A stretch of DNA of 61,879 nt from a virus (taxonomy: Duplodnaviria; Caudoviricetes). Position numbers and translations under genes: made by a program. Positions within the stretch are counted from its first letter, which is position 1. Each line of letters begins with the position of its first letter. Where the stretch lies: the IMG/VR virus record IMGVR_UViG_3300046115_000122, positions 1-61,879 of that record; one strand, 5' to 3'. A model generated the notes under the pieces. The model worked only from the letters and a program-made list of their open reading frames with translations. It was not told the origin of the DNA and did no database searches. Of the stretch, positions 18,892 to 41,811 are shown one piece after another.

Positions 18892-19190
18892 GCCGGGCAG
18901 CATAGCAGCGAATGACCGCGAGGCGTTGGTACGGGCCGGTTTTGGCAGTTTTATGATGCAGCTCCGCGCGCGAGGGCATCGACAGCATCGACCGGACCTC
19001 TTGACGCGGCGTGTTACACTGGCCGCGCTCGTCCCCCACGAGCACCGCATTTCCACAGCCAACCCCACCCCGAACGGCGACGCCAGTAGTCCGCCGGTAG
19101 CTCAGGCTGGATAGAGCACCGCGATTCTTTCGCGGAGGTCGGACGTTCAAATCGTCCCCGGTGGTCCACCGCGGCGTGTGCGTCAGTGCT

Positions 19191-20636
19191 ATGGCGCTTG
19201 GGTTCAATTCGCCGGAAATCCTGTTCCTGAACACTTGGGACGAGCCCGAGCGGAACTATCTCTACCCGATTTTTCAGAAGCTGCGGCAGCGTGGCTACAC
19301 GCGGTTTGTGGAGCCGTGCGCCGGCGCGTTCGTGATGCCGTCGATCGCGGTCGAAGGTGGGTGGCCGCGCGCGCAGATGCTCATGTCGGACGTCTCGCTC
19401 TTTTCCTCGCTCATGGGCTACACGTTCATGGGCAAGCCGTTGGACGATCTGGAGATCCGCGTCGACGGGGAGCCGATTGCGATGGCAGACGGGGTCACCG
19501 TCGCCCGCCAGGCGGCGACGGTGCTCTATCGCCAGTTGGTTCTGCGCATGGATCGCCGGCCGGAGCTGCCGTACTGGGATGAACTGCGCCACGACCTCAG
19601 CGAGCGCGAGGCTGCGCACATCGCAGACATCGAGCGCCACATCCTACGCCTGGACGAGCGAATGCACGGCGTGCAGTACGTGCCGAAGGACATCTGGCAG
19701 CACGTCGAGGACGTGGCCGACGACCCGCACACGGTCATCTCGGTCAACCCGCCGACGTACAAGGGCGGCTTCGAAAAGTTCTACGACACGGGTGGCCGCC
19801 TGACCTGGAAAGAACCGGCCTACGACGTGTTCGACGCCCAGGTCGACGTCTACCGGTTGCTCGAGCAAATGCAAGGCCGTGCCGCGCTCATCCTCTGCCA
19901 GCAGCAGCAGGAACCAGGCAAGGCGGGTCACTGGCCGGTGTACGCCCGCCACCTGTCGCTCGGCCAGTACGTCTACGTCTGCGCAAATCGTCCGACCGAG
20001 GTCCTGGAACTCGCTGGTGGGATGAAAGTGATGCCGTTGAAGGGCAAGGACATCCAGCGGTTGGACGTGCCGACGATTCCGAAGGACCACGAGATCACCG
20101 CCGCCTCGACTCTCACGGTTATGGCGGTCACCGACAAGGAAGCGACGTACTACCGTGACCTGTGGATGCACAAGCTCGACTACCGGTCAGCAGGCTACTA
20201 CGTGGCGGTTGTGCTCGACGGGTTCCTGGCCGGAATGATTGGCTACGACGCCGCGCCGATCTACCGCCCGTACCCGGGCGCCGGCGACAACGTCAAGGGC
20301 GCGCTGCTTCTCACCTTCGCGGTGGGTGCCCCGCACACGCGGCGGTTGACCCGCCTGACGACGATGGTCGCTCTGTCTAAGGACACTCTCACGAAAGTGC
20401 TCCGACCCGACCTGGCGGTGCTCATCGAGCGAATCATCACCGTCGAGTTGACGAAGTACCCGGAAGCGAAGGGCCTCCGCGGGCTGATGACGCTCATGCG
20501 ACGCCCCGACCCGAAGTACGGCAACCGGCTCGTGTACGGCACCGCGGCGACGACCCAGGCCCTGACCGCGATTCCCGGGATCTGGCGCCGCAAAGAGGAC
20601 GCATGGCAGAAGGAACGACAGAAGCAGCTGGTTTGA
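19191..20636 (+). CDS. Amino-methyltransferase-like protein (NPPTY variant) with an extra C-terminal domain
   Basis: FVEPCAG (motif I-like), MSDVS, SVNPPTY (motif IV-like). Confidence 0.7.
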   Translation: MALGFNSPEILFLNTWDEPERNYLYPIFQKLRQRGYTRFVEPCAGAFVMPSIAVEGGWPRAQMLMSDVSLFSSLMGYTFMGKPLDDLEIRVDGEPIAMADGVTVARQAATVLYRQLVLRMDRRPELPYWDELRHDLSEREAAHIADIERHILRLDERMHGVQYVPKDIWQHVEDVADDPHTVISVNPPTYKGGFEKFYDTGGRLTWKEPAYDVFDAQVDVYRLLEQMQGRAALILCQQQQEPGKAGHWPVYARHLSLGQYVYVCANRPTEVLELAGGMKVMPLKGKDIQRLDVPTIPKDHEITAASTLTVMAVTDKEATYYRDLWMHKLDYRSAGYYVAVVLDGFLAGMIGYDAAPIYRPYPGAGDNVKGALLLTFAVGAPHTRRLTRLTTMVALSKDTLTKVLRPDLAVLIERIITVELTKYPEAKGLRGLMTLMRRPDPKYGNRLVYGTAATTQALTAIPGIWRRKEDAWQKERQKQLV

Positions 20637-21544
20637 ACGTCGCGCTCGAAGGCGGGCTGTTCATCAGGACCGTCGACATCGCCGACCTGAAAGAGCAAGA
20701 CGTGAATGCTCACGTGATGCCGCCGGCGATGTTCGAACGCCTGGTGGAGAACATCCGCATCACGGGACGGATGGAGTCGCTGCCGTTCTGCGCGCAGCCG
20801 AAGGGCTCGGGCCCCGTCGAGATCGTCTCCGGCCACCACCGTGTTCGCGCCGCGCGCAAGGCCGGGCTCACGCGCGTGGACGTCCTCGTCGACACCGCCG
20901 ATCTGACACGGTCGCAGATCGTCGCCAAGCAGCTGGCGCACAACGCCTTGGTCGGCTTCGACGACCGCGATCTCGTCAAGCAGTTGCTCGCCATGGTCAC
21001 GAACGTGGACGACCTGCTCGAAAGCGGCCTGAACGCGGACCTGCTGCCGACGCCCGACAAGTTCAAGGTCACGCTGTTCACGCCGCACGCCGACTATAAG
21101 TGGAAGACCGCCACGTTCGTGTTCCTGTCGCACCAGCTCGACAAGTTCGAGGAGCTCGTGAAGTCGCTGAAGTCCGAGGCCAAGACGGTCTGCGTCGCGT
21201 GCGAGGGTCAGTTCGAACCGTTCATGAAGGCGGTCGCGGCGTTCGCCAGGGAACGGAACATCCTGAGCGCCGCCTCCGCCGTCGCCACGCTCACCGACCT
21301 GGCGCTCGAGCAGGCGCGGGAACTCGCCGAGCAGCGCGAGGCCGCCGAGGGTGGGGAGAACAAGCCCGTCAAGGTCTCAGGTCCGCTGCTGTCGCAGCTC
21401 TTCGGGACGTCACGGATTCCGGAGGACGCGGCGGAGGTCATCCGGGCGGCGATCGACAAGATGGTCGAGAACCACGACCTGGACAAGAAGTCGAAGTGGT
21501 TGGCCCTCGAACGGTGGGCCGCAGATTACCTGGCTGGCGCCTGA
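20603..21544 (+). CDS. ParB/Srx N-terminal domain protein
   Basis: EQDVNAHVM..FERLVENI, IVSGHHRVRAA, HNALVG. Confidence 0.85.
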   Translation: MAEGTTEAAGLNVALEGGLFIRTVDIADLKEQDVNAHVMPPAMFERLVENIRITGRMESLPFCAQPKGSGPVEIVSGHHRVRAARKAGLTRVDVLVDTADLTRSQIVAKQLAHNALVGFDDRDLVKQLLAMVTNVDDLLESGLNADLLPTPDKFKVTLFTPHADYKWKTATFVFLSHQLDKFEELVKSLKSEAKTVCVACEGQFEPFMKAVAAFARERNILSAASAVATLTDLALEQARELAEQREAAEGGENKPVKVSGPLLSQLFGTSRIPEDAAEVIRAAIDKMVENHDLDKKSKWLALERWAADYLAGA

Positions 21545-21768
21545 TGATGGACCGACGCACGTTTCTCGCCTCGCTCGTCACCGTGGTGGTCGCGCCGGTC
21601 CTGCCAGCGCCGCCACCAGTCGGGCTGTCGCGTTCCGTCATGAAGTTTCGCGCGCACGCGTTTCGGATGCTGTGGCAAGGCGAGAACGTCGTGCCACTCG
21701 ACCGCTTCGACGTGCTCTGGGGCTTCAAGACCGTCCGGCCGGAGTTGGCCTGTCGGATTGAGGGGTAA
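21544..21768 (+). CDS. Twin-arginine-signal mini-protein ending in a capsid C-terminal-like peptide
   Basis: MDRRTFLASLVTVVVAP...RFDVLWGFKTVRPELACRIEG versus capsid RFSYDLLFGAKTVRPELGTRIAG. Confidence 0.7.
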   Translation: MMDRRTFLASLVTVVVAPVLPAPPPVGLSRSVMKFRAHAFRMLWQGENVVPLDRFDVLWGFKTVRPELACRIEG

Positions 21769-21772
21769 TCCG

Positions 21773-22282
21773 ATGGGCCGCCGGAATGGACGCCCGTCGA
21801 AGCTCACGCCAGACGTGCAGGACACGATCTGCCAGCACATCGAGCTGGGGCAGTTCCAGCACATCGCGGCGGCGCTGGCCGGCATCTCGGATGAGACGTT
21901 CTGGCGGTGGATGCGCCAGGGCGAGGATGTCGTCGAAGAGGGCACCGGGCGCGTTCTCCAGGTCGCCCCGAAACGGTTCCGCCTGTTCCGCGCGGCCGTG
22001 CTGCAGGCCCGCACCAAGTGCGAGGCCGCGATGGTGGTCAACGTCCGGCTCGCGGCGCAGAACGGCGACTGGAAAGCCGCGGCGTTCTGGCTCGAACGCG
22101 TCTTCCCCGAACGGTGGGGACGGCGCACGCGGTTGGAGCACGTCGGCGAGGGTGGGGGCCCAGTGAAAGCGGAGGTCGCGGTCGATTTCGACCGATTGTT
22201 CAGCGAATTGAGTAGTGACGAACGCGCTGTTGTCAGAACCATCCTGGAGCGCCGCGCTCTCCAATCCGGCCCGAGCGCTTGA
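21773..22282 (+). CDS. terS: Terminase small subunit
   Basis: GRPSKLTP, AAALAGIS..TF..W, DWKAAAFWLER..P..WG; directly precedes TerL. Confidence 0.85.
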   Translation: MGRRNGRPSKLTPDVQDTICQHIELGQFQHIAAALAGISDETFWRWMRQGEDVVEEGTGRVLQVAPKRFRLFRAAVLQARTKCEAAMVVNVRLAAQNGDWKAAAFWLERVFPERWGRRTRLEHVGEGGGPVKAEVAVDFDRLFSELSSDERAVVRTILERRALQSGPSA

Positions 22283-23864
22283 CGCGCTCGACCGGTGGGA
22301 GTCCGAGCAGTCGCTGATCTCGTTCATTGAACGAGGGTGGCACACGCTTGAGCCGCCGACGCGGCCGTTCGTACGGAGCCGGGCCATCGACCGCATCTGC
22401 GAGCACCTGGAAGCGGTGCACACCGGCCAGATCACCCGCCTGTTGATGAACGTCCCGCCTGGCTGCACGAAGTCGATGACGACGAACGTGTTCATGCCGG
22501 CGTGGATTTGGGGCCCGCAGCGGCGGCCAGACCGTCGATTCATCTCGTGGTCGTATGCGGAAAACCTCACGCTTCGCGACAACCGGCGGTGCCGCAATCT
22601 CATCACGTCAGCCTGGTACCAGCGGCTGTGGTCTGACCGCTTTTGCCTGTCCGACGACCAGAATCAGAAAGTCAAGTTCGAGAACGACCATCGGGGCTGG
22701 AAGTTCGCGACCTCGGTCGGCGGCGTGGGCACCGGCGAGCGCGGCGACATCCTGATCGTCGACGACCCGCACAACGTCCTCGAGGCCGAGTCGGCGCTCG
22801 TGCGCAAGAACGCGCTGCAGTGGTTCGCCGAGGTGCTGCCGACACGTCTCAACGACCCGTCGTCCAGCGCGATTGTCGTGATTATGCAGCGCGTGCACGA
22901 AGAGGACGTCAGCGGGCTCATCCTGGCGCACGAGCTGGGCTACGAGCATCTGATGCTGCCGATGCGCTTCGAGGAAGAGCGTCGGTCGTTCACCGTCGTA
23001 CCCAACGGGAACCAGCCGCGACAGCAGATGCGGTACCTGGTCGCGGAGCAGCGGTGGGTGCCGGAGCAGTGGCAACCAGACCCGGCGAAGGACCCAGCCG
23101 AATCACACGCATCGCTGATTGAGCAGCACGCCAAGGCCCCGACGCGCGAGGTCTACGCGCAGGACGTGCGCACCGCCGAGGGAGAACTACTCGACATAGA
23201 GCGCTTCCCGCAGGAGGTAGTCGACCGCGACGAAAAGGTGCTCTCGTCCGTCGGCGGCTCGTACGCGGTCGCGGGTCAGATGCAGCAGCGGCCGACGGCG
23301 CGCGGCGGCGGCATGTTCCTGCGCGAGTGGTTCACGATCGTGGACGCCGCGCCGGTGGACGGCAAACGGGTGCGCTACTGGGACAAGGCGGGCACCGAAG
23401 GCGGAGGCGACTGGACCGCCGGCGTCAGGATCGTGAAGACGCCAGAGGGCAAGTACTACGTCGAAGACGTCGTTAAAGGGCAGTGGTCGAGCGGAACGCG
23501 AAACAAGAACATCAAGCTGACCGCCGAATTGGACACGTGGTCGGTCGCCGTCTGGGTCGAGCAGGAACCCGGCAGCGGCGGCAAGGAGAGCGCGGAATTC
23601 TCGCTGCAGGACCTCGCTGGCTACGACGTCCACAAGGAGCCGGTGTCGGGCGACAAGGAGACACGCGCGCGCCCGTTCGCGGCGCAGTGCGAAGCCGGGA
23701 ACGTGTACCTGGTGAAGGCACGCTGGAACAAAGAGTTCATCGACGAGTTGTGCGGCTTCCCGATGGGGAAGCACGACGACCAAGTGGACGGGGCGTCGGG
23801 CGCGTTCAACAAGCTCGCGCTCGGACCGACCGGCTTCCGGATTCAGAAGCTCGAGGGGTTCTGA
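22215..23864 (+). CDS. terL: Terminase large subunit
   Basis: NVPPGCTKS, LIVDDPH, VIMQRVHEED, RYWDKA, HDDQVD. Confidence 0.95.
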   Translation: MTNALLSEPSWSAALSNPARALDALDRWESEQSLISFIERGWHTLEPPTRPFVRSRAIDRICEHLEAVHTGQITRLLMNVPPGCTKSMTTNVFMPAWIWGPQRRPDRRFISWSYAENLTLRDNRRCRNLITSAWYQRLWSDRFCLSDDQNQKVKFENDHRGWKFATSVGGVGTGERGDILIVDDPHNVLEAESALVRKNALQWFAEVLPTRLNDPSSSAIVVIMQRVHEEDVSGLILAHELGYEHLMLPMRFEEERRSFTVVPNGNQPRQQMRYLVAEQRWVPEQWQPDPAKDPAESHASLIEQHAKAPTREVYAQDVRTAEGELLDIERFPQEVVDRDEKVLSSVGGSYAVAGQMQQRPTARGGGMFLREWFTIVDAAPVDGKRVRYWDKAGTEGGGDWTAGVRIVKTPEGKYYVEDVVKGQWSSGTRNKNIKLTAELDTWSVAVWVEQEPGSGGKESAEFSLQDLAGYDVHKEPVSGDKETRARPFAAQCEAGNVYLVKARWNKEFIDELCGFPMGKHDDQVDGASGAFNKLALGPTGFRIQKLEGF

Positions 23865-24136
23865 TGGACCACCAACACGACAGATGGACCAACACGGCAC
23901 TCGACGGCAAGCTGGACGCGAAGCTCCAGGGCCTCGACCCGTTAGGGCCAGGCACCACGCAGTCCAAGAACTGGCGAGTGTGCTCGAACGCGAAGTGCAA
24001 GGACGTGTTCTGGGACGCGCGCTACACGCTCTGCCCGTCCTGCCGGTACATCGGGCAGGTCGGGTTCTACATGGGCGCGGTGCTCGCCGGGGCCTGCTAC
24101 GTCCTATGGCAGGTGGTGCAGTGGCTCGCCCGGTGA
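23864..24136 (+). CDS. Small Cys-containing membrane protein
   Basis: CSNAKC / CPSC plus C-terminal hydrophobic helix. Confidence 0.6.
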   Translation: MDHQHDRWTNTALDGKLDAKLQGLDPLGPGTTQSKNWRVCSNAKCKDVFWDARYTLCPSCRYIGQVGFYMGAVLAGACYVLWQVVQWLAR

Positions 24137-24609
24137 TGCTGAACCTCACGCGTCTGTCGATGGAGGCGATGGCTCTCCTGCGCCAGGAGCTCGTTAGGAG
24201 CACGACCTACGTCGGCTGCCGGTATTGCGGCCACACGCGGTCACCGCAGGCGAACTGTCCAGGCTGCGGTGCGCCGTTGCCGAGCACGCGTGCCTTGACG
24301 CTTCCGTTTCCGCGCGTGACCAAGGGGAACGTGAACGTGTGGTGGACTGTCAGCGTGCTGCACGCGCCCGACCTGCTCGAGGGTGAGAAGCCGAAGCTCG
24401 CCGCGGGCATGCACGCGCTGGCGATGGAGGTCGCGAAGCTGAAAGGAATTATGGAGGTGCCATCGCCTATCGGGCCAATGCAGACGTGGATGCGCGTCGA
24501 CGACCCGCAGACAGGCGTGTCGATGCGGTGTCGCCCTGAGTTGCCAGGAATTGAGCAGGAATTCGAGGGTCCGGTGATCTACGAGTTCAGCGTAGTAGGC
24601 GCGCGATGA
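24136..24609 (+). CDS. Hypothetical protein with Zn ribbon and capsid-like segments
   Basis: CRYCG..CPGCG; RVDDPQTGVSMR versus capsid AVDPVSGLTLR. Confidence 0.55.
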   Translation: MLNLTRLSMEAMALLRQELVRSTTYVGCRYCGHTRSPQANCPGCGAPLPSTRALTLPFPRVTKGNVNVWWTVSVLHAPDLLEGEKPKLAAGMHALAMEVAKLKGIMEVPSPIGPMQTWMRVDDPQTGVSMRCRPELPGIEQEFEGPVIYEFSVVGAR

Positions 24610-24863
24610 GTTTCATCGTGCAGGTCTACGTGGGGCCGTGCGAGCCGATTGGGCTTGAGGCCACGGACTGGCAGCGGCCGAAGCCAAAAACGTTCGAGGT
24701 GCGTCAGGTGTTCAGCGTAGCAGGGACGCGATGAAGTTGACGGCCGGTCGTGAGGTCGAGAACCGTCCGCTGGGAACGCAGGCTGCCCCGTCTGTGAGGC
24801 TGGTGTCTTGGCCCGCGGCCGGTCCGTCAGCGCGCATTGTAGCAGGTTGAGTCGAGGCGACGC

Positions 24864-25331
24864 ATGTTGAAGCTTAAGACGCGGAGTCAACTCGTGGCCG
24901 AGGTCCTCGCCCGTTCGTTGGGTAAGCGCGTCGTGCAGGCTGAACCGACCGCGACCGCGACCCCGACCGACGCGCTCGGCCGCCCGCTTGTCTACGCGCC
25001 GGACCTGCCGCGCAAGTCGCGCAACACGGTCCTCCCTGTTGGCCACCAGTGGAACGGCGCCGACGTGCGCGCCGGCGGGAAGGCGATGGGGCGTCGCATC
25101 GCCCAGATGCAGGCGCGCGGCCTCCGACACTGCGACATCGGTCAGCACTGGGTCCGGATCGCGGAGACGCGGATCCTCGGACAGAAGGTCTCGTGCTTCG
25201 ACTGCATTCCGGAAACGGTCGCAGACGTCGAGGCGCGCACGCACGCCGACGCCGACAATGCGCGCCTGGATACGCGCGCGATGAGCGACCCGGTCGAGAA
25301 CCATTTCGAGGTTCAGGAGATCGACGAATGA
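24864..25331 (+). CDS. Hypothetical protein
   Basis: ORF in the gene chain. Confidence 0.6.
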   Translation: MLKLKTRSQLVAEVLARSLGKRVVQAEPTATATPTDALGRPLVYAPDLPRKSRNTVLPVGHQWNGADVRAGGKAMGRRIAQMQARGLRHCDIGQHWVRIAETRILGQKVSCFDCIPETVADVEARTHADADNARLDTRAMSDPVENHFEVQEIDE

Positions 25332-25513
25332 AAGAGCACACTAAAGTCGTCTGCCCCGCGTGTCGAGGAGTGATCACCCAGTGCCGCTGCTTCGAACCGG
25401 ACAAGGCGATCGTGGTGTCACAGGCCCTCTGCGACACATGCCAAAAGAAGAGATCCGGAGAGTCGAGCGCAACGGACGTCGGCTCGGACATTCCTGGCGG
25501 CGGTGCTGCGTGA
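25328..25513 (+). CDS. Small Cys-rich protein
   Basis: AGGAG RBS; CPAC..QCRC..CDTC. Confidence 0.6.
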   Translation: MKEHTKVVCPACRGVITQCRCFEPDKAIVVSQALCDTCQKKRSGESSATDVGSDIPGGGAA

Positions 25514-25764
25514 TGAAAGTCAACACCGCCTACTGTGCCGGCCTGCAGCGCTGCAGTGCGTGCGGGTACACGCAGTTCACGTTCTGGCCGCTCCGCCAGG
25601 ACCGCGGGCATAGCGCCTTCGAATGCGGTGACTGCGGCGAACTGGCTGCGGAGATCCACGGTACGGCAGTCGTCGTGTGGAGTGGGTTGTTCGGCGAACT
25701 GGCGGCGGCCGCATGCCGTGAGGCCATTCGGGCCACGGAGTTGCGCGGGCGATTCCATTCGTGA
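25513..25764 (+). CDS. Small Zn-ribbon protein
   Basis: CSACG...CGDCG; coupled start. Confidence 0.55.
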   Translation: MKVNTAYCAGLQRCSACGYTQFTFWPLRQDRGHSAFECGDCGELAAEIHGTAVVVWSGLFGELAAAACREAIRATELRGRFHS

Positions 25765-25788
25765 GGGCCCGATGACTGGAGGTCGGTG

Positions 25789-26172
25789 GTGATAGTGCGT
25801 TGCCACTCGTGCGATCGCGTCTATGACGATGCGGAGTGCTGGACGATCTGTCCGCACGGGCCGCTCTGGGCTGGCGTCAGCGCGTACTGCCCGCTCCACG
25901 ACCTCGTCCACTGCCCGAACCACCCGCCGACGCGGGGCCCGGACGGCTGCTACGGCCTGTTCACCGTCGACGACGCGGCGCTGCTCGGCGGCGTAAAGGT
26001 ATTCCTGGACGGCGTCGAGTTGACGGAGACGTTCTGCGCGGACGACCGCCAGGGCTGGGTCGCGCGGTACTGCGACAGCCCGCCAGCGACCCATCCAGAC
26101 CGGCCGGACGACGTGCGGACCGAGGTCCTGGTCGGACGCGTGCGAATCGAGCGGAAGGGCGCGGCGGCATGA
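25789..26172 (+). CDS. Hypothetical Cys/His-rich protein
   Basis: GGAGG RBS; CHSC..YDD..CPH. Confidence 0.6.
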   Translation: MIVRCHSCDRVYDDAECWTICPHGPLWAGVSAYCPLHDLVHCPNHPPTRGPDGCYGLFTVDDAALLGGVKVFLDGVELTETFCADDRQGWVARYCDSPPATHPDRPDDVRTEVLVGRVRIERKGAAA

Positions 26173-26414
26173 CGCCGCTGGAATGGCCCGTGGACCCGCG
26201 CGGTCAGTGGTCCGCGCGGCAAGTACCCTACGTGCTCGAGGCGAACGCCACGTTCTGTCTGGAGCGCGGGATCGAACTCCGCGTCCTCGACATCAGCACG
26301 TGGGGTGAGCCGTTCTGTCGCCTGATTACCGTTCACTGTCGCCGGCACGCCGCGCGGATCGACATGGACGCGGGCTGCCCACGCTGTGTGAAGGAGTCGA
26401 CCGATGCCGATTGA
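26169..26414 (+). CDS. Hypothetical protein
   Basis: ATGA overlap. Confidence 0.55.
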   Translation: MTPLEWPVDPRGQWSARQVPYVLEANATFCLERGIELRVLDISTWGEPFCRLITVHCRRHAARIDMDAGCPRCVKESTDAD

Positions 26415-27897
26415 CAGCCCGTGTGCGGAATACGAGAAGGCGTCAGCGAAGTGGCAGAAATGCCGCGACGTCATCGCCGGCGGCGACGCTATCAAAGGCA
26501 ACCGGGTGCTCTACGTCGCGAAGCCGTCAGGAATGGACAAGGACGACTACAACGCGTACATCGAGCGCCCGGAGTTCTTCAACGCCACTGCCCGAACGGT
26601 GCAGGGGATGAGCGGCGCCATCATGCGACGCCCGCCTACGCACGAGGCTCGGCCGGACGTCGAGAAACTGTTCACCGACGTCACGCTCAACGGCCGCGCG
26701 CTGGAGAGCTTCGCGGCGGACGTCCTCAAGGAGACCATGTCGGTGGGCCGCGCCGGTGTGCTCGTCGATATGCCACCCGCCGGCTCAGAGAACCAGCGGC
26801 CGTACTGGGTCCTGTATACCGCCGAGCAGATCTTCAACTGGCGCGTGGTCGTCGTCGATGGGAAACGCGTCCTGCGGCTCGTGGTGCTGCGCGAGTGCGC
26901 GAAGACACCGTCGCCAGATGACCCATACGTGATGGAGGAGGAGATCACGTACCGGGAATTGCGGCTACTGATGTCGGACGGCCCGCGGCCGGTCCCGACC
27001 GGGTACGTGCAGGTGATCTGGCGGAAGGTCATCACAGCCTCCGACGACGGGACGAAGAAAGAAGAGTGGGTCGCGGACGCCCCGATTGCGATTGTCCGCC
27101 GCGGCGAGGCGCTCACGTTCATCCCGTTCGTGTTCTTCAACGCGGACGACAACGAGACCGACATCAGCGAGCCGCCGCTCAACGACCTCGCGGACGTCAA
27201 TGTCTCGCACTTCCGCACGAGCTGTGATTGGGAGCACGGCGCGCACTACACCGCATGCCCGACGCCGTGGGCTGTCGGCGTACCCACGCAGACCACGCTC
27301 AAGATCGGCAGCGGGACAGCGTGGATTCTGAACGACGGCCCGCACTCGAAGGCCGACATGCTGGAGTACAGCGGCCAGGGCCTCGGCGCGCTCGAAGCGC
27401 TCGTCGACCGCAAGGAAAAGCGGATGGCAGTCCTTGGCGCACGGCTGCTCGAGCAGCAGGCCACGCACGTCGAGACGGCGGAAGCGGTCCGCCTGCGACA
27501 GCGGGGCGACGAGAGCGTCATGGTCCGCCTCGCGAACACCGTCAGCGCCGGCCTGACGCGCGCCCTGCAGTGGACGACGTGGTGGATGGGCTCCGGGAAG
27601 CTCGAACAGTCGGAGATCCAGAAGGCCAAGATCACGCTGAACACCGACCTCATCGAAGTCAAGATGGACGCCCCGACGATGACGGCGCTCATGGGCCTGT
27701 TCCAGGGCGGCGCGATGTCATTCGAAGTGCTGTTCCACAACCTCAAGCAGGGTGAACTGATTCCGGCTGGGCGCACGCTCGAAGATGAGCAAGAGGCCAT
27801 CGAAGGCGAGGAGCGCAAGCGGCTTGATATCACGAAGGAGGAGCTCGCGGCGGCGAAGGCGCCGGTCATCGCGCCAGCCGGAGGGACCGGCGTATGA
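26404..27897 (+). CDS. Portal protein (DUF4055-like)
   Basis: 497 aa after terminase; FFNATARTV.G, GRAGVLVD, PYW..YTAEQI.NW, PPL.DLA..N..H, MAVLGARL. Confidence 0.9.
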   Translation: MPIDSPCAEYEKASAKWQKCRDVIAGGDAIKGNRVLYVAKPSGMDKDDYNAYIERPEFFNATARTVQGMSGAIMRRPPTHEARPDVEKLFTDVTLNGRALESFAADVLKETMSVGRAGVLVDMPPAGSENQRPYWVLYTAEQIFNWRVVVVDGKRVLRLVVLRECAKTPSPDDPYVMEEEITYRELRLLMSDGPRPVPTGYVQVIWRKVITASDDGTKKEEWVADAPIAIVRRGEALTFIPFVFFNADDNETDISEPPLNDLADVNVSHFRTSCDWEHGAHYTACPTPWAVGVPTQTTLKIGSGTAWILNDGPHSKADMLEYSGQGLGALEALVDRKEKRMAVLGARLLEQQATHVETAEAVRLRQRGDESVMVRLANTVSAGLTRALQWTTWWMGSGKLEQSEIQKAKITLNTDLIEVKMDAPTMTALMGLFQGGAMSFEVLFHNLKQGELIPAGRTLEDEQEAIEGEERKRLDITKEELAAAKAPVIAPAGGTGV

Positions 27898-27918
27898 CCG
27901 AACGTGTTGAGGTGGTCC

Positions 27919-28332
27919 ATGGTCGCGCGTAGTCGAGACAAGCTCCGTCAAGTGCTCCAGACGCAGCCGCGGGCTTGCGGGGCGGCGTGCATCGCGATGG
28001 TCGCCCGCATGAGCCTTGAGGCCGCCGAGTACATCAACGGCGGAGGCCTGACGACGACGCGGCAGCTCGTCGCCGTGCTTCGCGCGTTGAAGCTCAAAGT
28101 CCCGCACCCAGTGCTGGTGGACGTCGCGAAAGGCCGGCAGCCACGCCCGGGCGACATCGTACGGCTGAAGTGGCCGACGGGCGGGCACTGGGTCGTTAAG
28201 GCCGACGTCGGCTACTTCGACCCGATCCATGGCCACGTGCCAGACGAGTCGTTCTACAAGGGCCTGGAGAAGCCGGGCGTGGTGACGAGCTTCCTGCCGA
28301 TTGGCTGGGATCCGCTCGCCAAGGAGACGTAA
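27919..28332 (+). CDS. Peptidase C39-like cysteine protease
   Basis: Q....CGAACIAM, HWVV, FDP: Cys-His-Asp pattern. Confidence 0.8.
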   Translation: MVARSRDKLRQVLQTQPRACGAACIAMVARMSLEAAEYINGGGLTTTRQLVAVLRALKLKVPHPVLVDVAKGRQPRPGDIVRLKWPTGGHWVVKADVGYFDPIHGHVPDESFYKGLEKPGVVTSFLPIGWDPLAKET

Positions 28333-28334
28333 CG

Positions 28335-28825
28335 ATGGCGACCGACGACAAGGGCCAGGAACTGAGCACGACCAGCGGCGCGCCGGTGGAGGAGGTCCGG
28401 CCTATCAAACCGCCGAGACCGGGCAGCACGCCGCGTACATCGTCCTCAGCGAGGAGGAGCGCGCGAAGGGCTTCATTCGCCCGTACCGTGACGCGTACAA
28501 GCACGTTGGGCAGCGGCCGACGTACCCGACCCGCGATCTGACCACGGAGGAGCACGAACGCTACGACAAGTTCGGCTACGTCTCCTTCGAGGCGTACCCG
28601 GATGACGCCCCGGAGAAGGGTGGCACCTCGGTGACTGGGCGGTATTGGACGCTCGCGCAGTTGAACAGCGGCGGCGGTGCCGTCACGACGATGGGTCGCT
28701 CGCTCTCGGAGACCTACGCACGTGACCCGACGTTCTACGGCTCCACGTTCTGCACGCGCTGCAACCGTCACCGTCCCGTGTCTGAGTTCGTCTGGACGGC
28801 GGACAACGCCGTCGTCGGTTCCTAA
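28335..28825 (+). pseudogene. Conserved phage protein split by a frameshift near 28400
   Basis: RBS and ATG 28335 (MATDDKG...EEVR) are out of frame with GQHAAYIVLSEEERAKGF...ETYARDP.FYG.TFC. Confidence 0.6.
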
Positions 28826-28839
28826 GCGAGGAGGAAGTA

Positions 28840-29103
28840 ATGATTCGCTGTTCCGAGTGCGGCGGCACGCGCCTCGACCCGTCGTCCGTGACGTGGCGAC
28901 GGCCGACGCGGTTTTGGCGGTTCTGGGCCTGGCGGGACGTCGACGAGGTCACGCAGCCAGACGACACGTGGGAGCGCCTGGAACTACGCAACCTCCACGT
29001 GGCGCTGGACATCCGCGTGCCGTTGCCCACGTGGGTCCTGCACGCAGTCGTGTGGTTCCGCAGGACGCGGCAGCGAATGGCCAGACGTTGGAGGGGTGTA
29101 TGA
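28840..29103 (+). CDS. Hypothetical protein
   Basis: GAGGAGG RBS. Confidence 0.6.
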   Translation: MIRCSECGGTRLDPSSVTWRRPTRFWRFWAWRDVDEVTQPDDTWERLELRNLHVALDIRVPLPTWVLHAVVWFRRTRQRMARRWRGV

Positions 29104-29366
29104 GCGACGACTCGTTCACGCACGAACCGTTGCCGTACGTAATCACGCTGCGCAGCACGTTGGACGACGACGCGCCGCCGACGGTGCGCGAGTTCAAGGT
29201 GACGGCCTACAGCCTCTTCGAGGCGGTGATCCAGGCCACGGTCGAAGCAGGCGGCTCTGGGCTCGCGGATGAAAAGCACAAGGCTGAGCGTATCGCCCCG
29301 GACCTCGACGCCTACTGGAAGGTGAAGGCGTGGCGCGAGGAGATGGCGAGGACTCATGGCAAGTAA
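29100..29366 (+). CDS. Hypothetical protein
   Basis: GGAGG RBS, ATGA overlap. Confidence 0.6.
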   Translation: MSDDSFTHEPLPYVITLRSTLDDDAPPTVREFKVTAYSLFEAVIQATVEAGGSGLADEKHKAERIAPDLDAYWKVKAWREEMARTHGK

Positions 29367-29544
29367 GGCGCGTCGCCCAGTGGACGTCGGCATCAAGCGC
29401 ATCCAAGCCTCCGCACGACAGCTTGAGGTCGCGTTCCGTCAGGCTGGAGCGGCACTCAGCGAACTGTCGCTGGAGGTCGATCGACTCAGAAAGGTCCTGC
29501 AGTTCGTGGAGATGCAGCGGCGGCGCCCGCGCAAGGGCTCGTAA
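29356..29544 (+). CDS. Small coiled-coil protein
   Basis: GAGG RBS. Confidence 0.5.
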   Translation: MASKARRPVDVGIKRIQASARQLEVAFRQAGAALSELSLEVDRLRKVLQFVEMQRRRPRKGS

Positions 29545-29547
29545 GTG

Positions 29548-30417
29548 ATGGAGCCTGAGTGGCGCGCTATTCATCGAATCGCCGACCGGCTCACGCCGGA
29601 GCTTCGTCGGGCGTTCCTGCTCGCCGTCGAGCAACTCCGCGGCCGCGTGAGCGTCGAGACGCTCGCCATCGCCCTGTCGACAAATCGGGTGGCGGCCGTG
29701 GAGTTCGTGTTAGACCCGGACCAGTTCGCGGAGCACCTGCGTCCGGCCGTCGCCGTCGTGAATGAAGCGTTCGCTGCCGCCGGCGCGGTCGCGGCGCGAC
29801 ACCTGGGCGCCGACGTCGGATCGGCGATGTCGTTCAACCGCACGAACCCGCAGGCGGTGCGCGCGGTCGATCGCGTCGGCGCGGTGCTGGTCAAGAACAT
29901 CACCGACGAGACGCGCGTTGCGATTCGGGAGGTAGTCAAGCGCGGATTCACGCAGGGCATCGCGCCGCGCGATTTGGCCCGGATGATTCGGGAGATGGTC
30001 GGCCTGTCGGAATCCGACCAGATGGCGGTGATCAATTACCGCTTCGGCCTGCTCAAGCAGGGCCTCCCGGCCGACCGCGTGGACCGCTTGGCGCGGATCT
30101 ACGCGGACAAGAAGCTGCGGGAGCGGGCGCTGACGATCGCGCGCACCGAGGTTCTCAACGCGAGCAACGAGGGGCAACTGGAACTATGGCGGCAAGCACG
30201 TCGCGACGGCCTCGTGAGCGAGCCGCTGAAGGTGTGGATCGTCACGCCGGACGACCGCCTCTGTCCGCGGTGCCGGCCGATGGACGGTCAAACGCGCAAA
30301 CTCGACGAGCCCTTCGATACGCCCCTCGGGCCACGCCAGCGGCCGACGCTGCACCCGCGGTGCCGGTGCGCGATGGGGCTGAAGGTGGCGACGGTCACGC
30401 GCGCGCGAGTCGCCTGA
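29548..30417 (+). CDS. Minor head morphogenesis protein (Mu gpF / SPP1 gp7-like)
   Basis: RALTIARTE, W..T.DDRLCPRC..MDG, PTLHPRCRC. Confidence 0.9.
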   Translation: MEPEWRAIHRIADRLTPELRRAFLLAVEQLRGRVSVETLAIALSTNRVAAVEFVLDPDQFAEHLRPAVAVVNEAFAAAGAVAARHLGADVGSAMSFNRTNPQAVRAVDRVGAVLVKNITDETRVAIREVVKRGFTQGIAPRDLARMIREMVGLSESDQMAVINYRFGLLKQGLPADRVDRLARIYADKKLRERALTIARTEVLNASNEGQLELWRQARRDGLVSEPLKVWIVTPDDRLCPRCRPMDGQTRKLDEPFDTPLGPRQRPTLHPRCRCAMGLKVATVTRARVA

Positions 30418-30619
30418 CGCCGCCGGCGGAACGGCACACCGCCATCGCGTTGGTCGTCCGCCTGCGAACGATCATCGCGCGACTGGCGGACACGATGGGG
30501 CAGGCGGACCCGTCGATCGAACCGTCGATCACGCGGGTGGAAAACGACCTGGCTGAGCTCGTGGACCGCGTCCACCAGCGCGTGCTGCGCCAGGCGGTTC
30601 GGGATGCGCGGCACGGACG

Positions 30620-30937
30620 ATGAGCGACCAGTGGGTGACAGCCGTCGTCACGTGCACGCGCTGCACCCGGTCCTGGCAGGCCGTCTACCTGTCGCGGATC
30701 CGGCTGCTCGAGTGCCCGTTCTGCGAGAAGTTCAGCGTCTGGTCGCCACAGACGGCGCTGCGGTGTGAAGCGCCCAAGCTGGGACCGAAGGCGGAGGCGC
30801 GACCGCCGCGCGTTCCCTGGGTACTCACGGACTGGGACAAGAAGGCGCTGCGAAGTTATCGGATTGACGTCGAGGAGCCGGGGCCAGATCCGAAGCCAGA
30901 GGACACGGCGCCGTCCAAGGAGAAACCGTGCGAGTGA
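30620..30937 (+). CDS. Zn-ribbon hypothetical protein
   Basis: CTRC..W.AV....LECPFC. Confidence 0.6.
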   Translation: MSDQWVTAVVTCTRCTRSWQAVYLSRIRLLECPFCEKFSVWSPQTALRCEAPKLGPKAEARPPRVPWVLTDWDKKALRSYRIDVEEPGPDPKPEDTAPSKEKPCE

Positions 30938-31116
30938 TTCGTCGCGTGCTGATATGGCTGGAGGCCCGGCGGGTACGGCGCAAGTACCGGCAAGCGAGCG
31001 AGCAACTCGCCTACATCGTGCGCATGCTCGAAGACAACCGCACGGTGCGTGAGCACGTGCGACGAGCCTTGTTCAACGACCCCCACGTCAAGGTCGTGCA
31101 ACGCGGGCGGCGGTAG
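30928..31116 (+). CDS. Hypothetical protein
   Basis: AAGGAG RBS. Confidence 0.5.
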   Translation: MRVIRRVLIWLEARRVRRKYRQASEQLAYIVRMLEDNRTVREHVRRALFNDPHVKVVQRGRR

Positions 31117-31377
31117 ATGCACCTCAGCATGAGCGACGATCAGTCGGCACCCGGCCGGCGCCGCGGACGCAAGCCTCGGGTTCCCGGGCAACCCGTCACC
31201 CGGTTCAACTTCGAGCTGACCGAGCAAGAGCACGCCGACCTGCTGGAGACGGCACGCGAGCTCGGGACGCATCCGTCTGACTTTCTGCGCGAGGCGGTCA
31301 ACGAAGCGGTGGCAGACTTTCGGGAGCGAAAATTGTTCGCCCCCGGCCGACGGCGGCGTCACAGTCGCCGGCACTGA
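31117..31377 (+). CDS. Ribbon-helix-helix regulator
   Basis: RGRKP..VTRFNFELTEQEH..L...A..LG..PSDFLREAV. Confidence 0.75.
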   Translation: MHLSMSDDQSAPGRRRGRKPRVPGQPVTRFNFELTEQEHADLLETARELGTHPSDFLREAVNEAVADFRERKLFAPGRRRRHSRRH

Positions 31378-31387
31378 CGGTCGCCCT

Positions 31388-31426
31388 ATTCCCTGCGTAG
31401 GAAATTCGCGGCGGGTCTGATCATCG
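31388..31426 (+). repeat. 39-bp direct repeat, copy A (candidate late promoter/operator)
   Basis: ATTCCCTGCGTAGGAAATTCGCGGCGGGTCTGATCATCG; 38/39 identical to 39669-39707. Confidence 0.95.
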
Positions 31427-31467
31427 GTGCGTTCACCTCCCCGCCTTTTTGACGGAGCCGACCGCCG

Positions 31468-31851
31468 ATGTCTGACGAGAAACCGAAGACGCTGCCGGAG
31501 CGGATCGACGCCTGTGTCGCGAAGGTCGCGCCGAAGGCGTTCGCGTACTTCCAGGCGCACGGCCGCTGGCCCCATCCCGGCTCGTTCGCCGAGGATGGCA
31601 CCGCGATTCCGCCCGCCGTCTCGCTCAAGGACCGCCTGACGCGGTTTCTCGCGGAGGGCCTGGCGGAGAAAGACGCCGCCGACTCCGCGCAGCGCGCCGA
31701 CGACCAGCATCGCCGCTGCCCGTACGTCATCCAGACCCTGTCGGAGAACCGTCGCCGCCTCACGATTACGAACGCCGACGGCGACGTCGTGACCGGCGTC
31801 GGCGCCGACATCGAGGCGGCCATCGCCGCTGTGGAGGCCAAGCTGTCATGA
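31468..31851 (+). CDS. Hypothetical protein
   Basis: GGAG RBS; first gene after the repeat. Confidence 0.7.
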   Translation: MSDEKPKTLPERIDACVAKVAPKAFAYFQAHGRWPHPGSFAEDGTAIPPAVSLKDRLTRFLAEGLAEKDAADSAQRADDQHRRCPYVIQTLSENRRRLTITNADGDVVTGVGADIEAAIAAVEAKLS

Positions 31852-32615
31852 ACAGCATCCGCACGGGTGGTGACGCGCAGCCGAACGGCGAGCTGGACCT
31901 CCAGCGCACGCGCGATTTGGGCGTGCTCCAAGGGATGCCGATCAAGCCGGGCCTCCGCTGGCACCTGACGAACTGGCTCCGCTACCGCCGGCGCGACATG
32001 CCCAAGGTCCTCGCGACGCGGTTCCTGGGGCAACTGCCGGGGCTCTGCACGTACGAGGCGCGGCTGTACGCCACCGTATATCGCGCGCCGTGGGCGTCGC
32101 TCGCGCCCTGGCAGGTGGCCAAGCTCCGCGCGCTGCTCGCCGAGAACGCGCTCGTCTTCGAGTTGCCGCGCTTTTTCGGCGGTGAGCTGTGTCACTACGG
32201 CCTGCTGTCGACGCGCGTGGTCACGACCGCCGGCGTCAACTTCATCGTCGACGCGTTCCAGAATACGACTGAGCTGGAGAACCTCAAGTTCCACGGCTTC
32301 GGCACCGGCACGAACTCGGAAGCGTCGGGGGACACCGCCCTCCAGACCGAGGAGACGACCCAGTACGCGACCGACAACACGCGGCCGACCGGGTCGACGA
32401 CAGAAGGCGCGAGCGCGAACATCTACCGCACCGTCGCGACGTATAGCCCGGACTCCGGCGGCACGCGCGCCATCACCGAGCATGGCGTGTTCAGCCAGGC
32501 GGCGACCGGCGGCGGCACACTGCTCGATCGCTCCGTGTTCAGCGCGGTGAACCTCGTCGCCGGGTCCGATTCGCTCCAGACGACCTACGACCTCACGTTC
32601 ACGGCTGGCTCGTAA
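31848..32615 (+). CDS. Probable virion structural protein (fibre-attachment-like)
   Basis: VVTTAG.N, GFGTGT..DTALQTE, ITEHGVF, GTLLDRSVF pattern of fibre N-terminal domains. Confidence 0.7.
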   Translation: MNSIRTGGDAQPNGELDLQRTRDLGVLQGMPIKPGLRWHLTNWLRYRRRDMPKVLATRFLGQLPGLCTYEARLYATVYRAPWASLAPWQVAKLRALLAENALVFELPRFFGGELCHYGLLSTRVVTTAGVNFIVDAFQNTTELENLKFHGFGTGTNSEASGDTALQTEETTQYATDNTRPTGSTTEGASANIYRTVATYSPDSGGTRAITEHGVFSQAATGGGTLLDRSVFSAVNLVAGSDSLQTTYDLTFTAGS

Positions 32616-32637
32616 CGCCAGCGCAAGGAGAGAGCCC

Positions 32638-33102
32638 GTGCGTGTTTCCAGTTTCGTGATGGCCGCGGCCCTGCTCATCGTGGCCGGCGAGCCCGTGCAG
32701 GCGCAGACGACCGGTCCCTGGACGATGACGGCGCAGGCCAATCCGGACCACAACACCATCGCGCAGACGGTGAACGTGGTCGCGTCGTACGAGTTGACCT
32801 TTACGCCACAAGGTGGGGTCGCGCTGCCGGCCCTCAACCTGGGCAAGCCGCCGCTGGTCCCGTCGTGCACGATCGCTGGGGCGACGGTGCAGAACTGCCT
32901 CGTGGTGGACATCAACACCGCGGTGAACGGGCTGCCGCCGGGGACATATACGGGCACGCTCAAGGCGGTCGGACCGGGGGGCCAGGCGGTCTCCCCAGCC
33001 GGCCCAAGTTTTCCACTAACAGTCCCTGCGCCGGGTCCGCAGGGAGCGCCGGGTATTTCACGGTCGGGCACCGCGTCGCGGCAAGCGACGCCACGACGGT
33101 AA
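32638..33102 (+). CDS. Secreted Fn3/Ig-like protein
   Basis: Signal peptide ending VQA-Q; LPPGTYTGTLKAVGPGG. Confidence 0.7.
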   Translation: MRVSSFVMAAALLIVAGEPVQAQTTGPWTMTAQANPDHNTIAQTVNVVASYELTFTPQGGVALPALNLGKPPLVPSCTIAGATVQNCLVVDINTAVNGLPPGTYTGTLKAVGPGGQAVSPAGPSFPLTVPAPGPQGAPGISRSGTASRQATPRR

Positions 33103-33166
33103 CGCTCGAAATTACGGTCACGGACTGCGCGGGCGTCGCGCGGACGACCTGGGTGCTGTTCCCCCG

Positions 33167-34054: not shown

Positions 34055-34067
34055 TTCGGAGGAGCCA

Positions 34068-35047: not shown

Positions 35048-35049
35048 CC

Positions 35050-37142: not shown

Positions 37143-37167
37143 CCACGGAAGTAAAGGAGTCAGGGAT

Positions 37168-37893: not shown

Positions 37894-37915
37894 CTAGAGT
37901 CTGAGGTCGTCCCGC

Positions 37916-39229: not shown

Positions 39230-39237
39230 GAGACACC

Positions 39238-39669: not shown

Positions 39670-39707
39670 TTCCCTGCGTAGGAAATTCGCCGCGGGTCTG
39701 ATCATCG
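39669..39707 (+). repeat. 39-bp direct repeat, copy B
   Basis: ATTCCCTGCGTAGGAAATTCGCCGCGGGTCTGATCATCG, upstream of the scaffold gene. Confidence 0.95.
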
Positions 39708-40686: not shown

Positions 40687-41811
40687 GTGGCCAACACCCT
40701 CTCTCCCATTATCCCGAAGCTGCTCGCGCAGGGCCTGATGGCACTGCGCCAGATGGCGATCATGCCCCGGGTCGTGAATCGCGGCTACGAAGGCACGGCT
40801 GGCGAGAAGGGGTCCATGGTCGAAGTGCCGATCCCGTCCGCGATTGCCGCGCAGGCCGTGTCGCCGTCCAACACGCCGCCGACAACCGCCGACATCGCGC
40901 CGACCGTCGCGCAGGTGGCCCTCGACCAGTGGTATGAGGCGCCGTTCTACATGACGGACAAGGACTTCCTCGAAGTCGAGCGCGGCATCATCCCGATGCA
41001 GGCCTCCGAGGCCGTCAAGTCCCTCGCCAATATCGCCGACAACTACATCCTCGGCAAATACAAGGAAATATACGGGTTCGCCGGCACGCCGGGGACCACG
41101 CCGTTCGCGGCCGATGTCTCGGCCTACACCGCGGCGCGCACCGTGCTGAACAAGCAGCTGGCGCCGATGGAACCCCGGTTCGTGGTCCTCGGGCCCGACG
41201 CCGAAGGCAACGCGCTCGGCCTGCGCGCATTCCAGGACGCGTCGTTTACCGGCAACCTCGACGGCATCATCAACGGGCAGATCAACAACAAGCTGGGCGC
41301 CCGCTGGCTGATGGACCAGAACATCCCGACGCACACCGCCGGGACCGGCACGGGCTACCTCGTGAACAACGGTGCGGGCTATGCGATCGGCATCAAGACG
41401 ATTGCGGTCGACACCGGCACGGGCACCGTGCTGGCTGGCGACATCATCACGTTCTCAACGCACACGCAGACCTACACGGTCGTGTCGTCGGTCGGCGGTG
41501 GCACCGTCACCTCGATCACCTTCGAGCCCGGCCTGGTGGTCGCGGTCGCGGACAACGTCGCGCTGACGCTCAAGGCCAGCCACGTCGTGAACCTCGCCCT
41601 GCACCGTGACTCCATCGCGTTTGGGTCGCGGCCGTTCGCGGGCGCCGATCCGATGGGCATCGGCAACTTCCTCAGCGCGGTCGACCCCGTCTCAGGCCTG
41701 ACGCTGCGACTCGAGGTGACGCGCGAGCACAAGCGCACGCGCTTCTCCTACGACCTCCTCTTCGGCGCGAAGACCGTCCGGCCCGAGTTGGGCACGCGGA
41801 TCGCCGGATAG
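40687..41811 (+). CDS. Major capsid protein, P22 coat-like with inserted beta domain
   Basis: MANTL..VNRGY..KG..V.VP; MDQNIP.HT.G; AGDIITF; LHRD..AF; DLLFG.KT.RPEL..RI. Confidence 0.9.
   Translation: MANTLSPIIPKLLAQGLMALRQMAIMPRVVNRGYEGTAGEKGSMVEVPIPSAIAAQAVSPSNTPPTTADIAPTVAQVALDQWYEAPFYMTDKDFLEVERGIIPMQASEAVKSLANIADNYILGKYKEIYGFAGTPGTTPFAADVSAYTAARTVLNKQLAPMEPRFVVLGPDAEGNALGLRAFQDASFTGNLDGIINGQINNKLGARWLMDQNIPTHTAGTGTGYLVNNGAGYAIGIKTIAVDTGTGTVLAGDIITFSTHTQTYTVVSSVGGGTVTSITFEPGLVVAVADNVALTLKASHVVNLALHRDSIAFGSRPFAGADPMGIGNFLSAVDPVSGLTLRLEVTREHKRTRFSYDLLFGAKTVRPELGTRIAG

Follow-up and report, generated by a model that had tools for sequence, protein, structure and literature searches.

A small phage gene linking a Tat-like N-terminus to a passenger related to the C-terminal end of P22-type coat proteins

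Results

A signal-like N-terminus joined to a piece of coat protein

A small phage gene was found to specify a protein in which an N-terminus resembling signals of the twin-arginine translocation (Tat) pathway is followed by a passenger homologous to the C-terminal end of P22-type coat proteins. The gene is located at 21544..21768 on the plus strand of the IMG/VR virus record IMGVR_UViG_3300046115_000122, which was analysed over its complete length of 61,879 bp (in the following the window; linear, with an estimated completeness of 77% and about 65% GC). It consists of 74 codons plus TAA, and its product of 74 residues, P0001, begins with MMDRRTFL. The protein belongs to a new small-protein family with an architecture that is not described in Pfam, PHROGs or NCBIfam, among GenBank phages searched by tblastn, or in the literature covered by full-text searches.

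Homology of the passenger to coat proteins

The major coat protein of the phage (P0002; 40687..41811, plus strand) is of the P22 coat type, with residues 16-374 matching PF11651 (P22_CoatProtein) at an E value of 6.3e-15. An earlier note on this DNA had drawn attention to a resemblance between the end of the small protein and the end of the coat, and pairwise BLASTP bore this out. No gap is needed to align residues 55-74 of P0001, its last 20 (21706..21765, plus strand), with residues 355-374, the final 20 of the coat; 13 of them are identical and 16 positive (E 9e-7), and in each protein the segment is followed directly by the stop codon. The similarity in the DNA, which the same note had placed near 21727 and 41770, consists of 14 identical bases, one mismatch and seven identical bases (alignment columns 88-109). 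It is largely explained by the identity of the proteins together with the codon bias of a genome with 65% GC and a GC content at third codon positions (GC3) near 0.85.

Profile comparisons extended the similarity beyond the tail. In an hhalign comparison of the family alignment (A2, described below) with an alignment of 33 coats of the resident subfamily (A4), residues 30-74 were aligned to coat residues 302-374 with a probability of 97.3% and an E value of 1.7e-11, over 45 columns and with two deletions. The passenger (residues 30-74; 21631..21765, plus strand) is a miniaturised coat C-terminus in which about 73 residues have been shortened by two internal deletions; the corresponding coat segment, residues 302-374 plus stop (41590..41811, plus strand), was indicated by BLASTP, DNA alignment and hhalign. 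Among 22 aligned family members, 15 were matched by phrog_283 (major head protein) and seven by PF11651. P0001 itself matched phrog_283 at an E value of 0.007, residues 44-72 being placed at profile positions 351-381 of 385, whereas neither Pfam nor NCBIfam gave a coat match for P0001 alone at E<=10. Three coat segments, 'FHKDAF', 'GISMRFVRxxD' and the tail 'RxDVLYGxxxxRPELACRI', were recognised by eye in varying combinations among the members, and P0001 and a few others seem, again by eye, to retain short versions of all three. The term 'capsid-derived' used in the earlier note is thereby supported: the passenger is homologous to the last 73 or so residues of P22-type coats.

Sequence searches of the PDB with the coat reached only its N-terminal half or middle, and no solved structure matched the tail. 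The tail was therefore placed by means of the domain limits of P22 gp5, which in the account excerpted from PMC9965877 assign residues 31-33, 79-127 and 358-416 to the P-domain and have the A-domain end with residues 417-430. By these limits, and because the Pfam match reaches the last profile positions, the passenger probably corresponds to the C-terminal strands of the P-domain plus the last strand of the A-domain. An excerpt from PMC9962691 describes the C-terminus of the P22 coat as facing the capsid exterior and as tolerant to fusions. The ESM Atlas entry for P0001 is a poor model with a predicted local distance difference test (pLDDT) value of 0.50 and gave no usable neighbour.

The Tat-like N-terminus

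The MDRRTFL start and the hydrophobic stretch noticed earlier within 21544-21768 are present. The twin-arginine motif R4-R5-T-F-L is encoded at 21553..21567 and an uncharged stretch, hydrophobic and then proline-rich, by residues 7-29 at 21562..21630 (both plus strand); the latter would represent the h- and c-regions of a signal peptide. R4, R5 and F7 are invariant in all 22 aligned members, and the consensus of the family is M-N/K-R-R-x-F-L-x-x-L-x-A-x-x-V-A-P-F-x-P-x-P. In this alignment, the residue following the phenylalanine is leucine in most members and phenylalanine or isoleucine in three, and no conserved lipobox cysteine is present in the signal region of the 22 rows. In 26 of 27 members, a crude script placed the two arginines (RR) at residues 3-4. 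The hydrophobic core, delimited by an equally crude split, comprises 11 residues in P0001 (family median 11, range 2-20) and has a mean Kyte-Doolittle hydropathy of 2.23; it is followed by the uncharged, proline-rich stretch with the family consensus VAPFVPxP. Tat signal peptides typically have a motif like (S/T)-R-R-x-F-L-K, an h-region of some 12-20 mildly hydrophobic residues and a c-region containing a signal-peptidase site. The core of the family is, as judged from its sequence, too short for a stable membrane helix, and the N-terminus is signal-peptide-like.

When the members were scanned one by one at a loose threshold of E<=10, the Pfam model TAT_signal (PF10518) matched 15 of the 22 (best E 5.7e-5) and the NCBIfam model TIGR01409 matched 13 (best E 0.0013). 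Together with the invariant RRxF, these matches support a Tat-like signal in the N-terminus of the family; the designation in the earlier note held at this level, P0001 itself not being among the proteins matched.

The small gene and its protein family

Taken on its sequence features, the small open reading frame (ORF) is a genuine gene within the packaging/head operon, encoding a 74-residue precursor. Its GC contents at the three codon positions, 0.68/0.45/0.83, follow the pattern of the ParB-like, terS, terL and coat genes. An alternative start, the second ATG at 21547 (plus strand), would yield MDRR, which is closer to the MNRR/MKRR start of the family.

When 1.84 billion cluster representatives were scanned exhaustively by phmmer, 26 matches were obtained at E<=0.001, namely P0001, two unrelated repeat proteins (P0012 and P0026) and 23 relatives. 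All 23 have the RR N-terminus in common, and most are 68-102 residues long, with matches that begin at residue 2 or 3 and extend to residues 72-74; P0016 (186 residues) carries an N-terminal extension, and P0022 is truncated and consists of the N-terminal part only. The family alignment of 22 rows contains P0001 and 21 relatives, with P0012, P0016, P0022 and P0026 omitted. Identity of the aligned members to P0001 ranges from 37 to 48%; R4, R5, F7, R54, D56, G60 and P66 are the same in every row, and A17, F40 and R71 in almost every row. Since divergent sequences retain the start, the length and a few invariant residues, purifying selection on the protein is argued for. The earlier note had named a lack of homologues under purifying selection as a ground for refuting its idea; with 23 divergent relatives and a full-length alignment with invariant positions, the idea is not refuted on this ground. 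A reading as a pseudogene or relic was rejected in view of this conserved family. The members have the VAPFVPxP block in common, which points to one shared origin.

A profile search of a set of 5.8 billion proteins added the members P0031-P0034 and P0043, which start with RR, and also returned many C-terminal coat fragments without an RR start. When P0001 was used as query in a word-indexed search of 5.8 billion proteins, nothing but P0001 was retrieved, and no Pfam, PHROG or NCBIfam family spans the entire protein. The majority of the members are singletons on short metagenomic contigs (Logan, ENA, JGI, NCBI).

Two further public sequencing runs from other studies (X2, X3) contain contigs with pieces identical to the window and without variation. 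The identical pieces are spread over 20051-23236, and a sediment metagenome run holds 0.57 of the sampled words. From a soil metagenome run, a contig of 210 nucleotides corresponds to 21540-21749 and includes most of the small gene. One low-depth sediment contig has an insertion of seven nucleotides at 21599-21602, in the proline-rich part of the gene.

Relation to the resident coat

The tail of P0001 is closer to coat proteins of other phages than to the coat encoded in the window. It is identical in 17 of 19 positions (89%) to coat tails in locus L001, versus 65% for the resident coat, and its closest matches in IMG/VR are the ends of coats of about 400 residues from other phages. Recent duplication of the resident coat tail was rejected on these values. 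Thus, the description in the earlier note as a copy of the capsid C-terminus was right as to homology and did not hold in the sense of a recent copy of the resident coat. When 83 coats were ranked by local alignment score to the passenger, the resident coats of the three phages carrying the gene took ranks 31, 28 and 55, in a set that had been gathered by similarity to the mini-proteins, so that the ranks are biased downward. R54, invariant in the family, is replaced by serine at the aligned position of the resident coat subfamily. Conversely, R365 of the coat is invariant and the corresponding position of the family varies. These differences support a selective regime of the family's own, distinct from that of the resident coat subfamily.

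For the window coat, 2733 relatives were detected at E<=1e-10. The nearest cultured ones are coats of MAR10/SSP002-like Vibrio phages (52% identity), and other matches stem from phages of other Proteobacteria. On the basis of these relatives, the host is likely to be Gram-negative.

Genomic context in the window

Nearly all genes of the window are located on the plus strand, and the small gene is tightly inserted between a ParB-like gene and terS. The TGA (21542-21544) of the ParB-like gene (20603..21544, plus strand; phrog_7405, E 2.9e-59; phrog_620, E 3.7e-14; PF02195, E 8.7e-4, which is under its cut-off) overlaps the first ATG of the small gene at 21544. Downstream, the TAA of the small gene ends at 21768, four nucleotides ahead of the likely ATG (21773) of the gene for the small terminase subunit, terS (21773..22282, plus strand; phrog_4102, E 2.9e-30), and GAGGGG at 21760-21765, the likely ribosome-binding site of terS, lies inside the 3' end of the small gene. 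The coupling between ParB and terS proposed in the earlier note is borne out by this arrangement and by the PHROG assignments of both neighbours.

The gene for the large terminase subunit, terL (22215..23864, plus strand; PF17289, E 1.2e-13), has 351 relatives in viral contigs confirmed by tblastn. A distance of about 17 kb separates terL from the coat gene (window 23884-40559). It contains the portal gene (26404-27897), an SPP1 gp7-like head-morphogenesis gene (29545-30417), several large ORFs without PHROG match (34346-36447 and 37916-39229) and the scaffold gene (39765-40559). Lysis genes are not adjacent to the small gene in the window. Upstream of the ParB-like gene, and overlapping it by 34 nucleotides, an ORF at 19161-20636 specifies a fusion of 491 residues composed of a phage Dam-like methylase (PF22555, E 1.4e-65) and a GNAT-like domain (PF22559, E 9.8e-28).

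Distribution among phage genomes

Two further phage records, G037 and G038, were found to carry the gene. In G037, a linear record of 48.4 kb and 66% completeness, the copy (L089:10001-10237) follows a terL with an apparent intein and precedes large ORFs, with the coat gene 12 kb away on the same strand. In G038, a record of 41.8 kb with terminal repeats and 100% completeness, the stop codon of the copy (L104:1105-1338) overlaps the ATG of the next gene, and the coat gene follows about 2 kb downstream. GC3 of the two copies is 0.80 and 0.71, matching their neighbours. Overlaps of the ATGA type connect the gene with its neighbours both in the window and in L104. All three carrier records, the window included, encode a P22-type coat, and in all three contexts the small gene is situated in or beside packaging/head genes. 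Apart from the coat and the small protein, an all-against-all BLASTP comparison of the three records (E<=1e-4) detected no protein common to them.

Searches for additional carriers were mostly negative. Among 38 viral records searched over their whole length, only G037 and G038, both already known, gave a full-length match. Only the coat was matched in 22 further records that have a coat tail of this kind, of which several are complete. No match to the small gene was obtained in 14 terL-related records, nor at 80 terL-related loci (terL at most 49% identical) within the fetched flanks of 6 kb or less. In tblastn searches of 50,697 GenBank phage records with P0001, P0011, P0006 and P0018, coat tails or nothing were hit. 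Searches for related loci confirmed none in viral contigs with alignment A3, none in genome contigs with P0011, and two in viral contigs with the coat P0002; a gapped DNA pattern had no matches in viral or metagenome contigs. A comparison of insertion sites would call for loci with the ParB-like gene and terS and without the small gene; no locus with both genes was found. Because the gene is absent from most coat-bearing records, from terL-related loci and from GenBank phages, it is, as far as these sequences reach, a rare optional accessory so far confined to phages with P22-type coats. A core head-assembly factor was considered and is unlikely, with a full-length match in two of 38 records and in none of the 80 terL-related loci.

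Several observations were made on related loci. About 400 nucleotides upstream of a related terL, a short ORF (L027:5420-5587) begins with NRRQFI and a hydrophobic N-terminus; it matches the N-terminal part of the family model with an E value of 0.042 and has no coat-like tail. In G038, a GIY-YIG/NUMOD3 homing-endonuclease gene (L104:2512-3222) is located just upstream of the coat gene, the frame of which is open from 3324 with its first listed start codon only at 3651; a free-standing homing endonuclease, an intron or an unusual coat start could account for this. The terL of G037 (L089:7019-8758) contains an apparent intein (Intein_splicing, E 1.6e-7, under the Pfam cut-off), and PHROG matches to terL are confined to its first 220 residues or so. 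In the provirus G020, the coat gene (L175:1495-2726, minus strand) is split into two overlapping frames of 298 and 115 residues, possibly by a frameshift, a sequencing error or decay of the prophage gene; it illustrates how C-terminal coat fragments without signal may arise. Finally, a motif resembling the coat tail occurs in G043 in a longer frame that does not specify a coat (L209:527-1264, minus strand; family model E 1.5e-5, positions 40-70). This frame is uncertain, the DNA being very GC-rich, and adjoins a QueC-like gene.

Other fusions of signal-like N-termini and coat pieces

Directly after the small gene, G037 contains an ORF of 134 residues (L089:10371-10775) with a second signal-like N-terminus of the RRxFL type. 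The signal-like start is followed by a linker of about 50 residues and then by the first 54 residues of the resident coat (34 of 54 identical, E 9e-21). By the P22 map in the excerpt of PMC9965877, these coat residues probably comprise the scaffold-binding N-arm, the first residues of the P-domain and the F-loop. The ORF product also bears a weak resemblance to Rieske/PetC Tat anchors (E 0.012 and 0.14).

This ORF may belong to a sister family, in which an RRxF(F/L) signal is followed by LDPEKALWVPGKK and then by coat-like segments, and whose further members would be the 99-residue ORF of G039 and the 109-residue ORF of G042. LDPE(K/R)xLW(V/T)P, the motif after the signal, is also present in a third Tat-like ORF of G037 (L182:1560-2186, minus strand, 208 residues), and in ORFs of 99 residues in G039 (L201:5998-6297), 109 residues in G042 (L204:5938-6267) and 120 residues in G040 (L202:4903-5265). 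P22-type coats are encoded in G039 and G042, both of which are complete. The 109-residue protein of G042 shows two weak collinear matches to the resident coat, one where the spine-helix region begins (E 2e-4) and one at a GDxFTIxGV strand (E 0.019), and matches phrog_283 with an E value of 0.006; for the 99-residue protein of G039, one weak match to the resident coat was obtained (E 0.001). The Tat-like gene of G042 lies just upstream of an ORF matching phrog_598, annotated as 'DNA ejection' (E 1.1e-5), and is preceded by a separate GNAT-type gene (L204:5474-5977).

The sister family and the small-gene family follow the same design, a Tat-like signal plus coat pieces in phages with P22-type coats. 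They differ in the coat pieces, which in the sister family are the N-arm/F-loop or the spine-helix start plus the GDxFTIxGV strand, and in the post-signal motif. A further variant, P0047 (128 residues, on a 748-bp ENA contig), is a single unverified sequence in which a Sec-looking signal with an AxA-like end precedes the last 85 or so residues of a coat of the window's subfamily. From these sequences, the combination of an export-type signal with a coat piece looks like a recurring design and not like an accident, the G037 case alone being statistically strong.

Discussion

Comparison with known proteins

With P22-type coats (PF11651, phrog_283), the small-gene family shares the tail R-x-D-V-L-Y-G-x5-P-E-L-A-C-R-I at the exact C-terminus, but it is devoid of the N-arm, E-loop, spine helix, A-domain core and I-domain, and it adds an N-terminus of the export type. 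Having 74 residues compared to about 370-430, the small protein cannot form the HK97 fold. With the HK97 core absent, the sequence marks it as derived from the P22-type coat family and not as a member of it.

Small, phage-encoded and optional proteins with an N-terminal signal are known, such as the T4 antiholin RI and exclusion proteins of the type of T5 Llp, phi80 Cor and HK97 gp15. None of these exported phage proteins is known to stem from a coat or to employ Tat. Unlike lipoproteins such as Llp and Cor, the family has no lipobox cysteine in its signal region, and the small gene is not beside lysis genes in the window, in contrast to what would be expected for antiholins such as T4 RI. From the arbitrium peptide AimP it is set apart by its neighbours, a ParB-like gene and terS of the packaging module, and by the lack of an adjacent receptor-like gene. 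With phage proteins that act as mimics, triggers or decoys in capsid-sensing defence (CapRel, Lit/Gol and PifA-type systems) it shares an idea, namely that host defences read a conserved coat element and that a free copy of it could compete; the capsid sensors known so far are cytoplasmic or reside on the inner side of the membrane. Full-text literature searches, judged mostly by abstracts, revealed neither a signal peptide or Tat signal fused to a capsid fragment nor a decoy made of a coat fragment.

A possible mimic of the coat tail

As no other reason for an invariant RRxF is known to us, the N-terminus of the small protein is probably read by TatC of the host Tat translocase, leading to export or insertion into the membrane. 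The coat-like passenger of about 45 residues would then be located in the periplasm or, if the signal stays uncleaved, on the outer face of the inner membrane. There it might act as a mimic of the conserved coat tail and serve as bait or competitor for whatever binds this element, a step that we put forward tentatively. Candidate targets would be a host factor or sensor in the envelope, or coat-binding material of other phages. At present, the best explanation appears to be a mimic of the coat tail that is exported or kept at the membrane, and in it we place somewhat less than even confidence. A wider form of the proposal is considerably more doubtful: some phages with P22-type coats may export miniaturised pieces of the coat fold through the host Tat system as extracytoplasmic mimic or bait, the C-terminal strands of the P- and A-domains being one such piece and the N-arm/F-loop, adjacent in at least one phage, a second. 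The pieces would act together or singly. As Tat moves folded complexes, they could in the bait variant also remove from the cytoplasm a host factor that binds the coat. Either variant, if true, would constitute a new class of capsid-mimicry accessory proteins.

A number of points weigh against a Tat-exported mimic. In having RR-x-F-L near the N-terminus, a moderately hydrophobic stretch and prolines, the family is like Tat signal peptides and uncleaved Rieske-type anchors. It departs from Tat signal peptides in its very short n-region of merely two to three residues, in the absence of the consensus lysine after FL, in the lack of regular AxA-like cleavage sites, which a crude script found in only some of the members listed and not clearly in P0001, and in the conserved VAPFVPxP. 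The conservation of this block is unusual for a signal peptide and may indicate that the N-terminus serves another purpose. P0001 alone matches neither Tat model, Pfam's or NCBIfam's, at E<=10, so that the case for Tat is made by the motif and by the family. The passenger, with about 45 residues and no cofactor, is a further difference, and a beta-sheet piece of this size may fail to fold alone. The presence of a Tat system in the host is an assumption. As to mimicry, which is a matter of inference, the coat ancestry of the passenger could be historical only, the ranks of the resident coats give no sign of co-evolution, and we know of no periplasmic reader of coat proteins.

Alternative explanations

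If the coat ancestry is history only, the protein would be an exported accessory with a periplasmic role unrelated to the coat, for instance in lysis timing, receptor masking or superinfection exclusion, and the coat strands would have been reused as a beta scaffold. This is unlikely in our estimate, despite several observations with which it agrees: the gene is rare and optional (two of 38 records, none of 80 terL-related loci), it does not co-vary with the resident coat, its invariant positions are its own and not those of the resident coat subfamily, and there are precedents for small phage proteins that are exported (T4 RI, T5 Llp, phi80 Cor). Against it stand the P22-type coat in all three carriers and the invariant R-x-D-x3-G-x5-P residues, which are also conserved in many coat tails. 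The neighbouring gene in G037, which joins a Tat-like signal to a coat N-terminus with 63% identity, looks like deliberate copying of the coat, and in the window the small gene has no lysis genes beside it. Alternatively, the RR and hydrophobic N-terminus could tether the protein to the membrane, so that the strands remain in the cytoplasm, pair with coat subunits and tether, nucleate or restrain head assembly. The location in the packaging/head module in three of three contexts would fit, and so would the correspondence of the passenger to P-domain strands that pair with the N-terminal strand of the coat in the excerpt of PMC9965877, the N-arm and C-terminal strand pieces encoded side by side in G037, and the failure to find a consistent cleavage site. 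A core of about 11-16 residues is, however, too short for a stable helix, the N-terminal arginines predict an N-in, C-out orientation that would place the passenger outside the cytoplasm, and an assembly factor would be expected in most such phages, whereas 22 other coat-bearing records, some of them complete, are without the gene. A tether is accordingly regarded as distinctly unlikely.

Improbable, to a higher degree, is a pilot or ejection protein that is packaged into the virion, the strands docking inside the procapsid and the N-terminus inserting into the membrane of the new host after ejection. It would agree with the location in the structural module and with the related Tat-like gene of G042 just upstream of the 'DNA ejection' ORF. 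That gene belongs to the sister family and not to the small-gene family, however, the invariant RRxF has no known role in packaging, and the P22 coat C-terminus, as described in the excerpt of PMC9962691, points outward and not inward. That the gene is a second coat gene decayed into a functionless relic, or an ORF held open by chance at high GC, is largely refuted and would be very surprising. Long spurious ORFs are frequent in high-GC DNA, stand-alone C-terminal coat fragments without signal do exist (P0042, P0048 and the frameshifted coat in L175), and most family members are singletons on short contigs; yet 22 divergent full-length members retain the start, the length, RRxF and the tail residues, the codon-position GC is that of a coding sequence, and the gene is intact in three unrelated phage backgrounds.

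Significance

Coat proteins are among the chief cues by which phages are recognised by bacterial defences, and they are what phage satellites mainly target. Outside the cytoplasm, we know of no function of a coat protein. If the small protein is exported, coat-derived peptides would have a role in this compartment, and a phage-encoded substrate or exploiter would be added to the Tat pathway. If the signal is inactive, the family would offer a clean example of a new gene that arose from a fragment of a structural gene and was kept by selection. The fusions described here give a hint of a wider design principle in which an export-type signal is combined with a piece of coat protein.

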